Source: Octopus vulgaris
Lineage: Eukaryota
DNA: 64,000 nucleotides
Assembly: GCA_951406725.2 (NCBI GenBank)
Contig: OX597829.1
Location: 35,154,001-35,218,000 of the forward strand
Reading direction: 5' to 3'
Shown piece by piece: positions 9,622 to 60,922 of the stretch (its first letter is position 1; each line of letters starts with the position of its first letter). The notes beneath the pieces are model-generated. The model made no database searches. It had not been told where the DNA came from and worked only from the letters and a program-made list of their open reading frames with translations. A program made the translations under genes and the position numbers.

Positions 9622-10851
9622 TCAGGCTGAGTAAAAGTAAGCAACATTTTGAAACATGAAATTCAACAATGCGGAAATTTTATTCATCAAAGTAAGTACT
9701 ATTACAATTAGCACATTTTTGACTACGTGTTACAAGTTTGTTCATTCTGGTAACATAAAGATCTGTAGTTCTGGAGCTGATGAACTCTTTGAACGCACTT
9801 TCAGCATCGGTTTGATTTTTGAACTCCTCTCGTAGGAAACCATTAAGGTGCTTGAAAAAGTGGTCGTCGGATGGAAGAAAGTTCTGGGAAATAAGCTGGG
9901 GTGCAGAAGGACTTCGTAGCCAAGTTTCCTCCACTTCTGGGGCGTCATTAGTGAAATGTGTGGTCGTGCATTGTCATGAAGAATGATCAACCCTCTTCTG
10001 TTGACCAGCCTGGGACGGAAGAGTAGCAGTCTGTCATTCTTTTTGGCAATTTCATGGCAATATATTATAGTGGATGAATCCAGCAGTACACCACTAGACA
10101 ATCACCATAACCTTCTTTTGGAAGAGCTCGGGGTTAGGGAAGGTTTTCGGTGCTTCATTTTGGTCCAAACATTGCGAAGCATGTTTTTTATTATTGTACA
10201 GAATCCACTTTTCATCGCAAGTTATTATAATGTCAAGAAATGGATCGCGCTGGTTACGGAGAAGAAGCGACGAGCAAATTTTATATCTGTGCATTTTCTG
10301 AGTTTCATTCAAATCGTGTGGTGCCAATTTGTCGAGCTTTTTTGATTTTTCGATCGCACGCAAATGGTTGCTGGCAGTTTTCTGGATAACTTGAAGTGCT
10401 TTTGCCAGTTCTTGAGTGATTTTACGTGGATCATACTCAATGACCATTTTAATTGGCCGTCATCGATAACAGATGGGCGTCCACTACGCTCACGCTGTTC
10501 AAGGCAGAGGCCTTCATTGCGAAATCGTTTAAATCATTTTCTAGCTGACCACTCGCTGGTCATTTCCCCACCAAACGTTTCGTTGATATTGCGAGCAGTT
10601 TCAGCTATTTTACGTCCTTTTGTGAAGTTGAATAGCAAAATATCGCGCTTTAACTGTTCCATTTCAGATGATTGTAATAACGGTGAAAAATTATCAATGT
10701 TAATTTATTGATGCATTTGGACAAGTCTGCGTCTGTATTATCTGACAATTGCAAACAAAAAAAAAAAATGTTTAAAAAAATTCAAAACTCAGCAAAATCC
10801 GGTACAAAATCTTCATGGTTCAAAACGTTGCTTACTTTTTACTGAGCCTGA
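9622..10851 (-). mobile_element. full-length (about 1.23 kb) mariner with disrupted transposase (Hsmar1/cecropia-like)
   Basis: about 40-bp TIRs tcaggctgagtaaaagtaagcaacattttgaaacatgaa, TA TSDs; transposase 10662 to 9680: RSGRPS, LAPHDL, IITCDEKW, LHDNARPH, CNSTYFDE; stops and frameshifts. Confidence 0.95.
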
Positions 10852-30185: not shown

Positions 30186-30296
30186 ATATATAACTTTAAT
30201 CCACACATTAAAACACAAATAGAAAACACAACAACGCGAGGACGTGAAACAAGTATAGTGTTATTGGACGGTCAGGAAAACGAAAGAAAGAAGGAC

Positions 30297-30332
30297 GATT
30301 TAACGTTTCGAGCGGAGCTCTTCGTCAGAATC
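30297..30332 (-). ncRNA. minimal hammerhead motif (CUGACGA)
   Basis: rc: gatt ctgacga a gagc tcc gctc gaaa cg tt aaatc. Confidence 0.65.
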
Positions 30333-30404
30333 ATAGGAAAAGGAAAGATCCAATGAAGGGAAGACGAAGGGAAAAATCGCCAACGATACACACGATACAT
30401 ATAT

Positions 30405-31474
30405 ATATATTAATAATATATTATTATTAATATTAAAAATCAGTATCAAAACTTCTCAGAAAGATATACACGTGTGAAAAATAATTGTTGCATAAAAAAT
30501 ATGTAAATAAATAAATATAAATATGCTTAAAAATATATGTAAATATGTATAAGTATGAATACATAATGTATATGACAGCTTAAAAGTTTTGAATTAAGAA
30601 TTTAAAGAATCTTACGATCGTTTCACAGAAGAGTTGTCCCTATAATGAAATCCTATATTGATAAGCATTTATGAACAACGCTTCTGCTCTTCAGAGATAT
30701 AAAATTTGAATTCTGTATAACATATCAAATGGTAGTTTCTTTTTTTAAATTTGAAGTAATATTATAAAATGGTGTTAGTTTGAAACATAAATTAAAAATT
30801 AAAAATTAATGCCTTTGATGAGAGTCTTTAAATCCATATATATACTTTTTTGGTTATTCTTCTGCAATAATCTATAATAGTCATATGTAAAATCCGTTAT
30901 ATTATCTTGTATTCCAAATATATTTCATACAGTTAATTTAGAAATGTGAAATTTGTATATACTTTAGTATGAGAATCTTGAAAGTCATAAATGTCTTCTT
31001 GGTAATTCCTCGGTAGAAATCCATAATACTTTTGTATAAAATTCATTATATTATTCGGTAATCCAAATATAGTTCATAATACAAAATCAAATTATATTTT
31101 AAATTATATGTAAAGTTATAAAATTATAAATTGGTCAAAATATTTCTTTTATATTATTATTTTTATAATTGGAAGATGCCAATTAAAAGTTTAGATTTTT
31201 AAATTTAATGCAATTATAACTGTCCATTTGTTATAGATTAGATGTACCCGGGTTCTAATTCCAAGAATATCTATTCAATCTTTATTTAATGTATAATTTA
31301 TAATTTATGTCTTCTAAATTTACTTATAGTCAAATAATTCTAATCAGTTTATCTATCTATCTATTTGTAAGTATCACCCTTTTAATACAACAGTTATTTT
31401 TCACACGTGTATATCTTTCTGAGGAGTTTTGATATTGATTTCCTAATATTAATAATAATATATTATTAAATATA

Positions 31475-31475
<1 letters not shown>
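30405..31475 (-). mobile_element. PLE-type insertion with about 85-bp inverted termini and an internal hammerhead
   Basis: 30405-30490 pairs with 31388-31475 (ctcagaaagatatacacgtgtgaaaaataa); HHR at 30609-30698. Confidence 0.7.
30609..30698 (-). ncRNA. type I hammerhead with intact core and extended stem II
   Basis: rc: atct ctgaaga gcagaag...cttctgt gaaa cgatcg ta agat. Confidence 0.85.
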
Positions 31476-31506
<31 letters not shown>

Positions 31507-42074: not shown

Positions 42075-42077
<3 letters not shown>

Positions 42078-42470
42078 GCTTAACAGCCCTCATCATGTGT
42101 TTCTATTGTGTTATTCTCCTTGTCCTGTCTTTTACTGTTTTTATTTGTATTGTTTTTACTGTCTTGTTTTGTTTTTACTGTCCTGTTCTTGTTACCACTT
42201 TTACCCCTCAGCAAAAAATCCCAAATTTTATTTAATTTGCTTTGCGGGACGGACTGTTTCAACTAAGTTGCGTCTTGCCCATACCTTCGAAACGCGGAGT
42301 AGCCGAAACAGGGGCAACTGAAGAAGGGGAATTTTCCTTGTGTTGTATGTCTTGTACTCTGTTTTTTCGTTGTCTGAAAAAAGGCCGCTTCCATGTTTTT
42401 GTTTTTATGTTTTCGTTTCTCATAGTGTTCAACGTTATTTTGATGTCCTGTACCCATATGTGCATGTATA
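42075..42470 (+). mobile_element. TA-flanked repeat carrying a rearranged hammerhead (PLE-terminus-like)
   Basis: homologous to the reverse strand of about 58085-58500. Confidence 0.8.
42268..42330 (+). ncRNA. candidate rearranged hammerhead ribozyme, intact core
   Basis: ttgcg tc ttgccc ata ccttc gaaa cgcgg ... gggcaa ctgaaga a gggg. Confidence 0.7.
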
Positions 42471-42538
42471 TATACATATAGACGTACGTATGTACATATA
42501 TGTATGTATATATGCATATGTTTTATATATTATTTTGT

Positions 42539-42601
<63 letters not shown>

Positions 42602-50899: not shown

Positions 50900-53800
50900 C
50901 CTTTCTTTATTGGCCACAAGAGCTGAACACAAAAACGTATAGGGACAATGCAAAAAACAAGGGACAAGTGGGATTTAAAAAAGAGAAAACATGTAAGCAA
51001 TAAAAACACAAAAATAAACAGTTAACAACAACGAAAATAAAACAACAAAATTCCCCCATAGGGGTGAATTCCACCCAGGATCAACCAGGCACCACACACA
51101 TCCTGGTCACCCCGACTTATAGACGAATATTCAGAGTAGGCCTATTCACGCGAGCCATTTTCGCAACATTCACCCACCTTTTAACAAAATTACTGAAGGG
51201 CAGCACTTCCCTCTCTTTCCTTTTTCAAGTCGAACTTGAAAAAGTCGATGAGGGACCGGCCGAAGAAGAAATTGTCTCCAGGCAGAGGAAAACCGCCTTC
51301 CCTTCTCGGTGAAAAGAAGGCGGCGGGGTGATCCACACACACAATGGACTCGGCTGATAACCGGACCCATCTTACAGGTGGCAACAGCTATTCGACAAAT
51401 CTCCACAGGTCAGTAATGTAGGACGGTTTCATCGCCCTGCGCACACCTCGGACAGGTCTGTCTTACAGCACTTCAGTGTCTGTAAAGCTTATCTCGAACC
51501 GGCAGAGCTCTCCGGTACCACTGCCAGGCCAGGGATTTCTGGAAGTTATCCATAGGTCCCGGCCCAAAAGCCCTGCAGAAAAGACCAGTTAGTTAAACCC
51601 TCTCGCCGCCCAGAGTTTCCCCGAGTTTCCCGTCGTTCTTCCCCTTCACTAATTCCTTATAGAACTCCATAGAACTTCCACCGATCGCGTTGCCCGACTG
51701 GCAGAAAGCTGTGAGCGCTTGCCTATATTCTAGGTGCCAAGCGTCCTTTCTTGTCCTGCGCTTGACCCAGGACTGTAGTTCCATCAATGAGACGTGCTGC
51801 GGAAAGTCCCGTATGACGAACAGCGACCACACCTGCTTACCATGAAGGAAACGCGGGAGATGTTGCAGCCTCAGCGCTTGTCTGCACATCATTAGCTACG
51901 GCATGCCCAGTCCTCCACTCAGCGGCTATTGATAGCAAGATGGATCATCTGATGAGCGGAACGCGTCCCTTCCATACAAGGCGGAAGAGCAAGCGTTCCT
52001 GCTTTATCTGGCACGAAGTGGGGAAAGGGACGACGGTCAGGTGGTAGTATATGATGGAAGCGATGTACGCATTCGCCACCTGCGCCCGACTCTTCCGGTG
52101 CAGCTTCTTCTCTTCCCATTTCTGAGTGAGATTGGCTACCCTGCTCGTCACCTCCCTCCCTCCAGTTCTTGTCAACCTGGAGGTCTGGACCAAACCAGGC
52201 CCCGAGCAATTTAACCGGTCCTTCCGTTCAGTGCCCTGCAACGCTGTCAGCTGGCATAGACCTGTCTCTCCAGATGCCGAGTTGCAGGCCCACCGACTTC
52301 TCCTGGTTGATCTTTGCTCTTGACACCGCTTCGTACTCCCTTAGAGTAGTGCAGACCACCTCGATTTCCGAGGTGTCCGACATTATTACGGTACAGCGTC
52401 CGCATAAGCCGACACGAACCTTCCGCATCCCAGATCACGCGGGATGCCCCTCATAACATCCAACTTCCGCAGCAATGGCTCGAGAGCCAGTACATACAGA
52501 AGAAGCGATAGTGGACATCCTTCACGGATCGAACGAGCGATGCTAAACGATTCCGATAGATTGCCATTTACTTTGACCACTGAGTAGATGTCGCTGTACA
52601 TTGCAGCCTCTAAAAAACGGCACCGAAACCCACTGCCGCGAGAATAGCCTCCAGGTATTTGGTTGTCGACCCTATCAAAAGCTTTCGATTGATTCAAATT
52701 GATCAAGGCCCCACCCATGCTAGTTTCATAACTCACCCTCTTTATGATGTAACGCGGGAAGTGGAGCTTGTCGTGGAGAGTTCTGCATGGGATAGAGCAT
52801 GTCTGCTCGTCATCGACCAACTTATCGACGATAAACACCAACCTCAGACGATCCATCAGACGTTTACATCTTGTGGCACACTGTTTATCCTAATTCTCGC
52901 CGTTTTCTTCGAGAAGTAGGTGGGATACAGGACCCACTCCTCAGTCCACAGGGGTGACACTGCGTGTCTTCGCGCGCAGCCCTCACTTTTAAAGAGAACC
53001 TCAATGCTGGCAAACTGCCTCCCTCTCTGTATGTGAACCACATCGACGTGACTGATGGAAGCTATTTCGGATCTCCTACTTTTCCGTGATACGCATTTAA
53101 AATATACTGTCTTTCTTTTGCTTCTATTATTTCATGAGGTATAGTCACTGATGTCTTGCCCACGACAATTTTGATGATGCTTTTTGCTTTAGAAAGTTCT
53201 CGAATTTTTTCCTCGATAGGAAGCGTAAACATTTCCTTCTTCGTGTTTGCTACATCGGCAAACCTCTTGCTTTTGTTATTGTTTTTGTTGTTGCTGTTGT
53301 TGTTGTTGTTGTTAAGCAACAAGACGGGTAAGGGTGATTAGGTGATGATCTAGGGCTTAAGGGCGGGAGACCCCAGACCTTGGGAAAAGAAAAACTTTGG
53401 TCGTCTTGTTGTAGTCGAGGGCTATTCGTTGACGCCCGGCACCACTGAGAGGTGGCCCTCGAAGTTGCTGGAAATGGAGATCTCCAGGTCCAAATTCTTG
53501 ACGGCTGTTGTTTCTGTCGTCGACGTTGCTCTTGTTGTCGTTGTTTACAGCTGGTGCTGCTGTTGTTGCTGCTGGTGGTAATGGGGGTGGTGTTGTGGCC
53601 ACTTTCACTGTTGCCACCCTCCACACCGCCGTCACCGCCTTCAAATGTAGTATTATTTTCTCCGCTTAAATCCATTGTGTTCTGAATTGCGTTGCTGTTG
53701 CTAATATCACCACTGCTTCTGCCGCCGTTACCGCCTCTGCTATCACCGTTTCAGCCGCCGTTGCTATCATTGCCGTCACCTCTGTTACCAATGCTTTCAC

Positions 53801-58069: not shown

Positions 58070-58304
58070 ATATATATGTGTATATATATAATATAAATAA
58101 CATATAAATATATGCATAAATACATACATATATGTACATACCTACATATATATGTATATATACATGCATATATGGGTACAGGACATCAAAAAACGTAGAC
58201 AAAATGAGAAACGAGAACATAAAAAACAAAACCATAGGAAACGAATTTTTTTCGAACGAAAGACACAAACAAACGGAGAAATGAGACAGGCAACATAAGG
58301 AACA

Positions 58305-58368
58305 TTCCCTTCATCAGTTGTCCCGGGTTTTATCTACTCCGCGTTTCGAAGGTAGGGACAAGATGCGA
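58305..58368 (-). ncRNA. candidate rearranged hammerhead ribozyme
   Basis: rc: tcgca tc ttgtccc ta ccttc gaaa cgcgg agtagataaaaccc gggacaa ctgatga a ggg. Confidence 0.7.
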
Positions 58369-58701
58369 CTTAGTTAAAACAGTCCTTCCCGCAAAGCAAA
58401 TTAAATACAATTTGGGATTTTTTGCGGCGGGTGAAAGTGGTAAAAAAAACAGGACAGTGAGAACAAAACGGTAAAAACAAACGGTGAGGACTGTTAAGCC
58501 CAGGCGATGTGAAGTGGGGAACGCTGGAAAAACGAGCTTTGAGAAGAGACAGGTAAAAGCACATCTTGTCTTTAGGAAGGAAGTGGAAGTAAGAAAGATG
58601 AATGGCCATTGGTCTCATGTGAGCAACGAGAGAGTCAAGGAAGAAAAGTGAGAGAAAGACAGCGGGAACGGTGAAGGAGAGCGGGAACGGTGAAAAGTCG
58701 A

Positions 58702-59059: not shown

Positions 59060-60922
59060 TCTAAGACAATGACCGTTGTTACCACCACTGCTACCCCCCC
59101 TACCTCCCTACCCCCCTACCCCCCCTACCACCACCACCACCACCACCACCACCACTAACACCAGCCACAGAAGTACCAAAGCCGGAAAAGAAGGAAAGAA
59201 CTAACCTCTCATCCCCCAACAACCTATATATCGCATCCCAACAGCCAGCAACCAGCACTAACAACAGAAGCAACATTTGCATTAACACACACAAATCGAT
59301 CCCAAATCCCTTCCCCACCCACTTTCTGATTCCTCTAATATGTCATCTGATGAAGACAACGCAGAAGAATGGCAAATGGCCACAGTGGGAAAAGAAAAAA
59401 GTGGGGTGGGGGTGGGGCGAAATGATCAGCGACGCCAGACTCTCCAACCCGTGGTCCCTGAAGCCCATTTTCAGCGGACAATTCGACATTTATTTTTCTC
59501 CGCATCTGCCGAGAATGGACGGTGGTGGTACCGCGGTGCTTTTTTGAAAGGGTCTGGATCTCAAAGTAAGGGCAGTATTCCTAGATCTGGAGGATAGGCT
59601 GGTCGTCTTGGATGTCGATGGTAGCAATAGGTTTGCTCTCCAACAGATAACGGTATACGCATCGTACTTATCAGGTCGGCCGGATTTCTTTCCACGTCTA
59701 GAGGTTTTCCTGGGAACGTCCCGACCTTTACTTTCAGTAGGGGATTGGGACGCTATCTTGGATATGCGTCTAGACTATGTAGGTATAGATTGGAAGAAAG
59801 AGAAGGGTATGAAAATGCCTAAAAGACCTGCTCAGACGTTTCCAACTATCCAACAGGTACCGACTGGGTTATCCATATGTGCCAATGTGGACATAGACCA
59901 ACCGCATTGGGTCGTCCAGATTGTATTTAGATAGAGTATTCTGTAGACTGGGATAGTGTAGGTTATCCACAATTTCACATACTTAGCTACACAGATTACA
60001 AATTCGTGACGTGTACACTCGACTTAGAAGAGAATCATAGGCAGGGTCCCAGAGACTGGAAGGCGAACGCACCGCTCTCGGCGCGACATGCTTAGAGTAA
60101 CCGGATTAGCAGATTAGTTAGAAGGGTTTACTCTAAAGTGGGCAATTAGCGATCGATCGAACAGGGCGCGAGTTACTCGAGCCCGAAAGGATGTATGAGG
60201 CCTGTCAACAACATTTTGCCTGACTGTTCGGGATAACTGGTCGATCGGAACGCAGGATAGACTTTGGAGCCTGCCACGACTCTCGGCAAGAGATGCGGGG
60301 TGTTGTCAAAATGCCATTACAGCCGCTGACGTGCGGGATGCAATGACAGGCTGCGCAAGACACAAGTTACCGGACTTAGATGGTCTGCCCATCGAGCTTT
60401 ATTGTCATACGCCAGACTTGTTTGGAGGTGTCTTGGCAAGAGTCTACTGCAACTGGCAGCAAAACGGGAGTATCCCCAGTTTTGTGAGGCGAGGACCGGT
60501 GACACTGTTAAAGAAAGATCCGATCAAGGGGAACGTTATAAATAATTTCCAACCCAATACTCTGCTCAACGCAGATTTGAAAATTTTGGCCAAGGTGCTA
60601 GCTGAGAGGTTGGTGCTTGTCATCGAGAAACTGGTCGACAAGGTGCAAACATGCGCCGTACCGCGCAGAAGTATTCATGACAATCTCCACCTCATGCGCT
60701 ACAAGCAGAGTAGTTAAGGAACCTGGCATGGGTGGGGCTCTTATCAATTTGGATCAATCAAAAGCTTTCCATATGGTCGACCATCGATACGTGGCAGCTG
60801 TCCATAGGGCGGCTAGTTTTGGTCCAGTCTTCCGCAGCTGGATCGCTGCCTTATACAGCGGTATCCGCTCAGTAGTTCAAGTAAATGGCCATCTACCTAG
60901 ACCATTTAGCATCACGCGTTCG
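59060..60922 (+). mobile_element. deleted Tx1/L1-clade LINE (ORF1 piece, AP endonuclease, RT N-half)
   Basis: LLSVGDWDAILD, YLDRVF, YTDYKFV, DLDGLPIELY, FQPNTLLNADLKILAKVLAERL, QTCAVPRRSIHDNLHL, GALINLDQSKAF. Confidence 0.92.

Follow-up and report, generated by a model that had tools for sequence, protein, structure and literature searches.

Among the hammerhead ribozymes reported so far, the closest to the one considered here is type SGC, which was described and validated by Eckert et al. in 2023 from environmental sequence only (PMC10085705). In the text and descriptors of that paper, a linker of approximately 3 nt joins stems I and II, an extra helix (the 'I' helix) is required, and block C (stem I-CUGANGA-stem II) is assumed to be indivisible; only two examples of type CSG are given, and none of the RNAs comes from the genome of a known organism, except for one GCS candidate in a bacterium. 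Naiads have been reported to lack canonical hammerheads, and the consulted description proposes no fold, while the accompanying supplement of Craig et al. 2021 flags eight Naiad consensuses as 'HHR_half_core' and ten entries as 'HHR_core' (PMC8557442). For hammerheads of other Penelope-like elements, trimming of the template has been proposed (PMC4209133). A paper of November 2026 cites, in the portion available, only Eckert et al. and two others for hammerhead variants, and our survey of the open-access literature returned no report of the split layout described below, or of non-circular hammerheads in animal genomes.

The window analysed here is a stretch of 64,000 nt from the 2.8-Gb genome of Octopus vulgaris. 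At 42076-42545 on its forward strand (the ends are approximate), it contains a 5′-truncated, non-coding copy of a Penelope-like element, assigned to subfamily A1 and bordered by (TA)n on both sides. An earlier note on this DNA had recognised in this copy a non-circularly permuted hammerhead outside types I-III, and re-reading of the sequence bore this out: CUGAAGA, GAAA and UH are all present at 42268-42324 in the order S-G-C, which is neither CGS, GSC nor SCG. The 5′ strand of stem III, with U16.1 (42273) and H17 (C42274), occupies 42268-42274 and is followed by the stem I strand at 42275-42280; the predicted cut falls after C42274, as in the note. A 3-nt linker between the far ends of stems I and II (42281-42283) leads into block G (42284-42297), which comprises the 3′ strand of stem II (42284-42288), GAAA (42289-42292) and the 3′ strand of stem III (42293-42297). 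The ribozyme ends with one half of block C (42312-42324), namely the second stem I strand (42312-42317) and CUGANGA (42318-42324). Stems I (42275-42280/42312-42317) and III (42268-42272/42293-42297) lie where the note had drawn them, and stem I is supported by pair counts and by the majority sequences of the subfamilies.

Stem II has to be drawn differently. The note had paired cttc with gggg in the extra A and G-tract that follow the core (42325-42340), a segment that may form a local hairpin and is a weak rival partner for 42284-42288. A strand located 70 nt upstream, at 42248-42252, starts with G10.1, pairs with the bases preceding GAAA and gives the better stem II in all families counted, and from these counts the stem II of the note is probably wrong. 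In family copies the majority sequence GAAGG forms five of five pairs with CCUUC before GAAA; the window copy reads GACGG, with an A-to-C change at 42250. All three hammerhead stems abut the core, stem II from upstream, with one stem II mismatch in the window copy. A fourth helix, corresponding to the 'I' helix, is formed by 42254-42260, right after the upstream stem II strand, and 42305-42311, right before stem I, as supported by pair counts and by the minimum-energy folds of A1 and B copies. With the upstream strand and this helix, the chain begins at G10.1 and ends after A9. The interval 42268-42330 proposed in the note therefore holds the core, whereas the upstream stem II strand and the fourth helix start outside it. 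The linker is short, as the note had remarked, but, since the RNA has a separate helix that covaries, it does not stand in for the contact of stem I with stem II. Between the fourth helix and stem III lies a purine-rich internal loop (42261-42267 opposite 42298-42304; GAAG opposite GAGUAG), which is retained in subfamilies A-D and in family E (see below) and is a candidate hinge or tertiary contact.

The hairpin composed of stem III and the fourth helix is the predicted minimum-energy fold of one A1 and one B copy; the minimum-energy structures of the window copy and of one Naiad copy differ from it. Damaged in stem II, the window copy is a decayed member of its family, and its own cutting may be weak. 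Canonical readings through a second GAAA (42306-42309) or a GAAA further downstream were rejected by eye, being without a matching cut-site block or stem II, and a hammerhead on the reverse strand was rejected because CUGANGA is absent from that strand. Over the window, the best 150 of 429 Rfam matches included nothing relevant and were microsatellites, and a local Rfam scan gave seven weak matches, with no hammerhead family among them. Elsewhere in the window, a Penelope-like repeat carries a canonical minimal type I hammerhead on the minus strand (30290-30335; position 30328), with a palindromic stem III loop and the extra A after the core (CUGACGA) that the note had ascribed to other Penelope-like hammerheads; a related stretch lies at 31299-31483, and similar hammerheads flank loci L009, L028 and L040. 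Decayed frames at 9742-10459 (minus strand) and at 52130-52919 and 59065-60717 look by eye like what we take to be a mariner-type transposase and LINE-type reverse transcriptases, respectively.

How does this RNA compare with types SGC and CSG? Their non-circular order, linker of about 3 nt, 'I' helix and, often, extra base after A9 all recur here, and the order, the short linker and the placement of the 'I' helix are those of SGC. The same puzzle recurs as well, in that the 'I' helix is joined directly to stem III, which Eckert et al. noted (PMC10085705). The differences are that the stem II strand is detached from CUGANGA instead of lying within 1-2 nt of it, where weak wobble pairing is possible in A-D and E; that both strands of the 'I' helix connect to stem III; and that our RNAs were found in retrotransposons and an animal genome, and theirs in metatranscriptomes and metagenomes. 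The note had placed the arrangement outside types I-III; type SGC had in fact already been published (PMC10085705), but the detached stem II strand is not in the SGC description, and relative to SGC and CSG as given in the text and descriptors of Eckert et al. the split core is new. Their SGC descriptor, re-implemented here, matched 2 of 280 loci. The published descriptors are restricted to CUGAUGA(U)G with a contiguous stem II, which is why a RefSeq search with them would miss the split form. The rearranged hammerheads in Xenopus that the note mentioned could not be traced to any report in the open-access literature.

The motif belongs to a dispersed repeat with a unit of approximately 750-780 bp, whose 3′ end is fixed 276 nt past the predicted cut; the reference's 3′ end is reached by 25 of 30 D copies. 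In the manner known from Penelope-like elements (PMC8557442), the repeat is truncated at variable 5′ positions, lies between (TA)n stretches and also occurs inverted or in partial head-to-tail arrays, and the note's attribution to a mollusc Penelope-like element holds on these grounds. A pattern with the exact A/D spacing matched the genome 760 times, against 0 for the reversed-pattern control. The 122 distinct copies were assigned to subfamilies A1 (45), A2 (18), B (28) and D (31), with 93.5-97.4% identity to their own majority, and a further homologous family, E, turned up in a descriptor scan. That scan covered 1.2 Mb, consisting of the window and loci that had been chosen for carrying the motif, and found 75 S-G-C cores, 49 of them with all four helices; five shuffles of the same 1.2 Mb gave 0-1 cores and 0 full motifs each. 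The family is also present in contigs of four sequencing runs with four organism codes (999, 5246, 4095 and 18 contigs), and a protein word search for it and a search of viral contigs gave nothing. The paralogue reported in the note exists on the minus strand: a damaged ribozyme of subfamily B at 58311-58388, in an element copy at about 58081-58697, with a predicted cut after 58362. In stem III this copy has lost the pair adjoining the cut triplet, and its fourth helix carries two changes. Beyond A-E, further subfamilies with their own compensatory stems were noticed (L316, G000:C1:129751354; L113:669-772). At the tail-head join (L016:1025-1075 and other full units), a splice-donor-like AAGTAAG lies inside a short GCATC/GATGC inverted repeat, and at L160:600-1350 a truncated D copy lies immediately next to the 3′ end of a different Penelope-like element, one whose C-terminal frame is GIY-YIG-like.

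Which element moves this family? No reverse transcriptase was found in a coding frame adjoining the A-E copies, which finish in a tandem tail or (TA)n, and tblastn on their flanks gave just two endonuclease-region matches. The ORF of Naiads, with an N-terminal GIY-YIG and a C-terminal reverse transcriptase, is absent from A-E, and their insertion habits ((TA)n, a fixed 3′ end, 5′ truncation, partial tandem or inverted copies) are those of Naiads. The mobilising partner of the A-E family is likely to be a Naiad.

The pairing was examined first within the family. On contig C1, all 60 matches, which were selected on stem II and the core only, were 94.5% paired in stem I, 90.6% in stem III and 93.9% in the fourth helix, with 110 two-sided cells compared with 38 after shuffling. 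A set of 111 copies (the 122 minus 11 with indels) was 90.8% paired, with 143 two-sided cells compared with 53 after shuffling, in an alignment where a misplaced gap counts one stem I pair of subfamily B as U-G. This excess of two-sided changes across the genomic paralogues is consistent with the covariation in stems I and III that the note had claimed. In the fourth helix, three of six pairs had two-sided changes; in D, its first pair is lost and two distal pairs are gained. No pair of stems I-III is missing from the majority sequences of the subfamilies. These within-family counts are inflated by the kinship of the copies. On a tree of the copies, three two-sided pair-keeping changes fell on internal branches, with nine one-sided breaks; of the 20 column pairs that covary most, 16 were outside the helices, the top two being helix pairs. 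The C-G to U-A change in stem I that the note had cited is a real difference between subfamilies, but it is weak evidence by itself, because changes within the family represent few independent events. In the majority sequences, core variation is confined to N7 (A or U between subfamilies) and H17, the latter being C in 34, A in 20, U in 1 and G in 0 of 55 copies. Only 30 of the 111 copies have an intact core with all pairs; breaks shared by several copies are A13 to G (6 of 37 A1 copies) and one in stem III (10 of 27 B copies), and 3 of 28 family E copies have a C-A mismatch in stem II. Among single representatives, conservation of the ribozyme exceeded that of the 5′ flank in 10 of 10 and of the 3′ flank in 7 of 10, a weak signal.

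We consider that the decisive support for the helices lies between families rather than within them. Stem II is invariant in A-D and shows no covariation there, so that a test between families was needed. Its 5′ strand covaries between A-D, E and the Naiad family, and 3 of 5 stem II pairs are altered on both sides between A-D and the homologous family E. With the upstream strand, the mean number of Watson-Crick stem II pairs was 4.67 of 5 in 67 A-D copies, 4.39 of 5 in 28 E copies and 4.94 of 6 in 33 Naiad copies, compared with 1.79, 1.93 and 1.06, respectively, with the downstream strand.

Naiad_Ovul, one of the consensuses flagged 'HHR_half_core', and Naiad_Obim form, as read by eye, the same four helices from unrelated sequences (PMC8557442). 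A pattern built from the Naiad_Ovul motif, but leaving out its upstream strand of stem II, matched the octopus genome 218 times (exact matches; control 0), and in several genomic copies a decayed reverse transcriptase lies upstream, relatives of which have an N-terminal GIY-YIG. In the inspected places of the same supplement, the split layout fits eight published Naiad consensuses by eye: Naiad_Bfor from a ctenophore (stem I of only 2 bp, fourth helix of 15 bp), three entries around Naiad_Aacu/Naiad_Anas (one of which carries mismatches), one entry each in parts 12 and 19, Naiad_Obim and Naiad_Ovul (PMC8557442). Naiad_Esco has the split layout with a stem II mismatch. The hosts of Naiad_Aacu and Naiad_Anas are, we presume, corals. 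An intact CSG layout with an 'I' helix fits five Naiad 3′ ends in parts 13-16 by eye, two of which, assigned by file order, are Naiad-2 and -3_Nbra from a nematode; one 3′ end in part 17 fits SGC by eye, with three extra bases after A9. Three Clytia Naiad 3′ ends gave no fit by eye, and six further 3′ places gave no clear layout. These readings cover 58 of 62 CTGATGA, 30 of 43 CTGAAGA and 23 of 23 CTGACGA places in which the motif stands on a single line of text. Other scrambled layouts were seen by eye in a CUGAAGA entry of part 16 and in parts 17-19, including a stem II that forms a hairpin of its own in the interval from the cut block to GAAA, and cores closed by an 'I' helix with a distant GAAA.

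Among 80 metagenomic loci with a Naiad-type reverse transcriptase, the full split motif was found in one (L233), which is 1 of 20 among those with 1 kb of 3′ flank; only these 20 loci had such a flank, and so any generality of the motif is tentative. In L233 the stems comprise 6 bp (stem II), at least 10 bp (fourth helix), 4 bp (stem III) and 6 bp (stem I), and the motif lies on the sense strand, 1.1 kb downstream of the reverse transcriptase frame; motifs of this type numbered 0 in the antisense strand, in the ORF and in 10 shuffles. The frame at L233:2-1762 continues into a long C-terminal stretch, and P0009 has a similar extension; the stretch in L233 resembles what we take to be a ubiquitin-hydrolase-like cysteine protease. 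Three other loci with Naiad-type reverse transcriptases (L219:3562-3626, L228:3095-3159 and L232:1913-1977) share a conserved 3′ motif, which was set aside as SECIS-like, with scores of 28-32 bits, below the gathering score of 35. At the level of sequence, these comparisons establish the block order, the four helices and their covariation, and the 3′ placement in both Naiads and the non-coding family.

We consider it likely, judging from these alignments, that the RNA is a non-circular hammerhead of the SGC/CSG class that has been opened at a new place, inside block C. Its layout would read stem II 5′ strand, fourth helix, stem III-UH-stem I, a linker of 1-5 nt, stem II-GAAA-stem III, fourth helix, and stem I-CUGANGA. 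If A9 and G10.1 were linked, type CSG would result; the split form is therefore a circular permutation of CSG, with the break within the core. We found no test, in the open-access literature, of whether the backbone can be interrupted between A9 and G10.1. In hammerhead chemistry, G12 serves as the base and G8 as the acid, and the usual chemistry would cut after H17 (C42274). Such a cut in tandem or read-through transcripts would make the 5′ end of the template, and the RNA would then begin at the cut and run through the 276-nt tail into the next unit, as a partial-tandem pseudo-LTR; if the last copy were cut, the short tail alone would be inserted.

The spatial arrangement is the least certain part of this proposal. 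Stem III and the fourth helix would form one long hairpin, whose loop would carry the cut site and GAAA and whose base would carry the stem II strand and CUGANGA; stems I and II have their far ends on the other side of the core, and the far end of this hairpin would have to reach them. If the base of one copy docked on the loop of another, which would be the simplest fit, no bend would be needed, and one cut per pair would result. A monomer would require a U-turn, which the 7 × 7 purine-rich loop of the A-E family could supply; the join between stem III and the fourth helix measures 0/3 nt in L233 and 1/0 nt in the part 19 entry, where a U-turn is hardly possible. We regard two-copy docking and a sharply bent monomer as evenly balanced. 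If true, docking may account for the steric problem posed by the published SGC ribozymes as well.

Does this fold still cut? It might instead be derived from a hammerhead and no longer cut, and serve the Naiad protein as a signal for binding or packaging; the clustered ends of genomic copies would then be made by stalling of the reverse transcriptase. We reasoned that a cut RNA should yield copies that start at or just past the cut. In 30 copies of the young subfamily D, picked by their downstream sequence, six starts fell at +1 to +11. We then took the first 100 of 243 downstream-pattern matches of D, of which 48 ran on past -115, 4 were duplicates and 48 gave ends: 14 ends fell at +1 to +11 (828 nt at risk) compared with 34 elsewhere (8353 nt), p=6e-5, for an interval that was set after the first 30-copy look and with a few copies common to both sets. 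The peak lies at +6/+7 (nine ends) and not at +1. Three ends that had been placed at -5 belong, by eye, at +1 to +9 and are artefacts of TA repeats, and three at -114/-115 are possible edge effects; after such artefacts were read by eye, the D, B and Naiad sets contained no true ends at -1 to -17. The two smaller replicates were not significant by themselves, with three ends at +1 to +12 in 29 B copies (p=0.14; two of them at +1 and +2) and two at +1 to +12 in 29 Naiad-family copies (p=0.25). Ends are also dense at +12 to +27, as expected from stalling on structure and in accordance with a fold that no longer cuts; minimal Penelope-like hammerheads, moreover, cut poorly in vitro according to the accessible text of their description (PMC4209133), and most copies are damaged. 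However, a reverse transcriptase moving 3′ to 5′ would already have passed the last helix at +10, so that stalling fails to explain the 11 of 48 D ends at +2 to +8, and the confinement of variation to N7 and H17, with G avoided at H17 (0 of 55), is what catalysis predicts. A non-cutting fold is thus unlikely, and the places where genomic copies start suggest self-cutting by the split hammerhead. Because 48 of 100 D copies run on past -115, this cutting would be at most partial.

A second alternative accepts cutting but retains an ordinary type SGC, with block C intact, stem II made with the G-tract and the upstream strand acting as an off-switch or being incidental. The G-tract is indeed conserved (46 of 60 identical over 8 nt), contiguous downstream pairs average 3.4-3.6 in A-D and E, one downstream pair shows a two-sided change between A and E (G-C to U-G), and the published Naiad 3′ end in part 17 of the supplement fits SGC by eye. 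Yet the pairs of the G-tract are mostly wobble pairs, with -2.6 kcal/mol compared with -4.6 kcal/mol for the upstream strand; the Naiad family forms two downstream pairs; L233 and the non-cephalopod consensuses, as far as these could be read by eye in the supplement, are without a usable downstream strand; and the fourth helix begins right behind the upstream strand, the same position that the 'I' helix takes relative to its stem II strand in types SGC and CSG. We therefore think this reading quite improbable. The segment G8-A9-A-G-G can pair with 42284-42288 as strongly as does the upstream strand (-4.6 kcal/mol each), and, together with the conserved G-tract, this competition for the stem II strand makes a switch possible. 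That short motifs were arranged by chance and copied by a repeat is highly improbable and largely refuted: although a single ancestor accounts for all A-D copies and the published consensuses were read by eye, all helices are kept by unrelated stem sequences in the Naiad family, E and L233, and shuffles and pattern controls give 0 full motifs.

The split hammerhead can also be set beside the ribozymes of other retroelements. With Naiads, as far as their description goes (PMC8557442), the window's family shares a motif in the 3′ region, insertion into (TA)n, and copies that are 5′-truncated, partially tandem or inverted; it differs in being without an ORF and in having a sequence unlike the Naiad tail. 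The minimal dimeric type I hammerheads of Penelope-like pseudo-LTRs (PMC4209133) resemble it in host class, in their place in a terminal repeat and in the proposal of two copies, but they are of circular type I with a tiny palindromic stem III, whereas the stems here are long and stable and the block order is opposite. Animal non-LTR retrozymes (bioRxiv 10.64898/2026.07.22.740005) are likewise non-autonomous, hammerhead-bearing and tied to Penelope-like elements; their type I hammerhead is absent here, and although some tandems were seen, our copies are mostly dispersed and truncated, from a unit of 750-780 bp. The consulted part of that preprint mentions no permuted ribozyme or cephalopod.

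On balance, we lean towards the wider view that the split, discontinuous core is a regular feature of Naiads from comb jellies to cephalopods, that it cuts in vivo, and that Naiads, far from having lost their hammerheads, carry non-circular ones of split, CSG and SGC layouts. The split core breaks the three-block rule by which hammerhead layouts have been listed, and existing descriptors therefore miss such RNAs. With these findings, non-circular hammerheads move from anonymous environmental contigs to animal genomes, where their copy numbers run from hundreds to thousands. Given the clustering of 5′ ends shortly past the predicted cut, in vivo processing of templates by these ribozymes becomes testable from genomes, and the split hammerhead is a possible answer to the apparent lack, in Naiads, of the hammerhead found in other Penelope-like elements.
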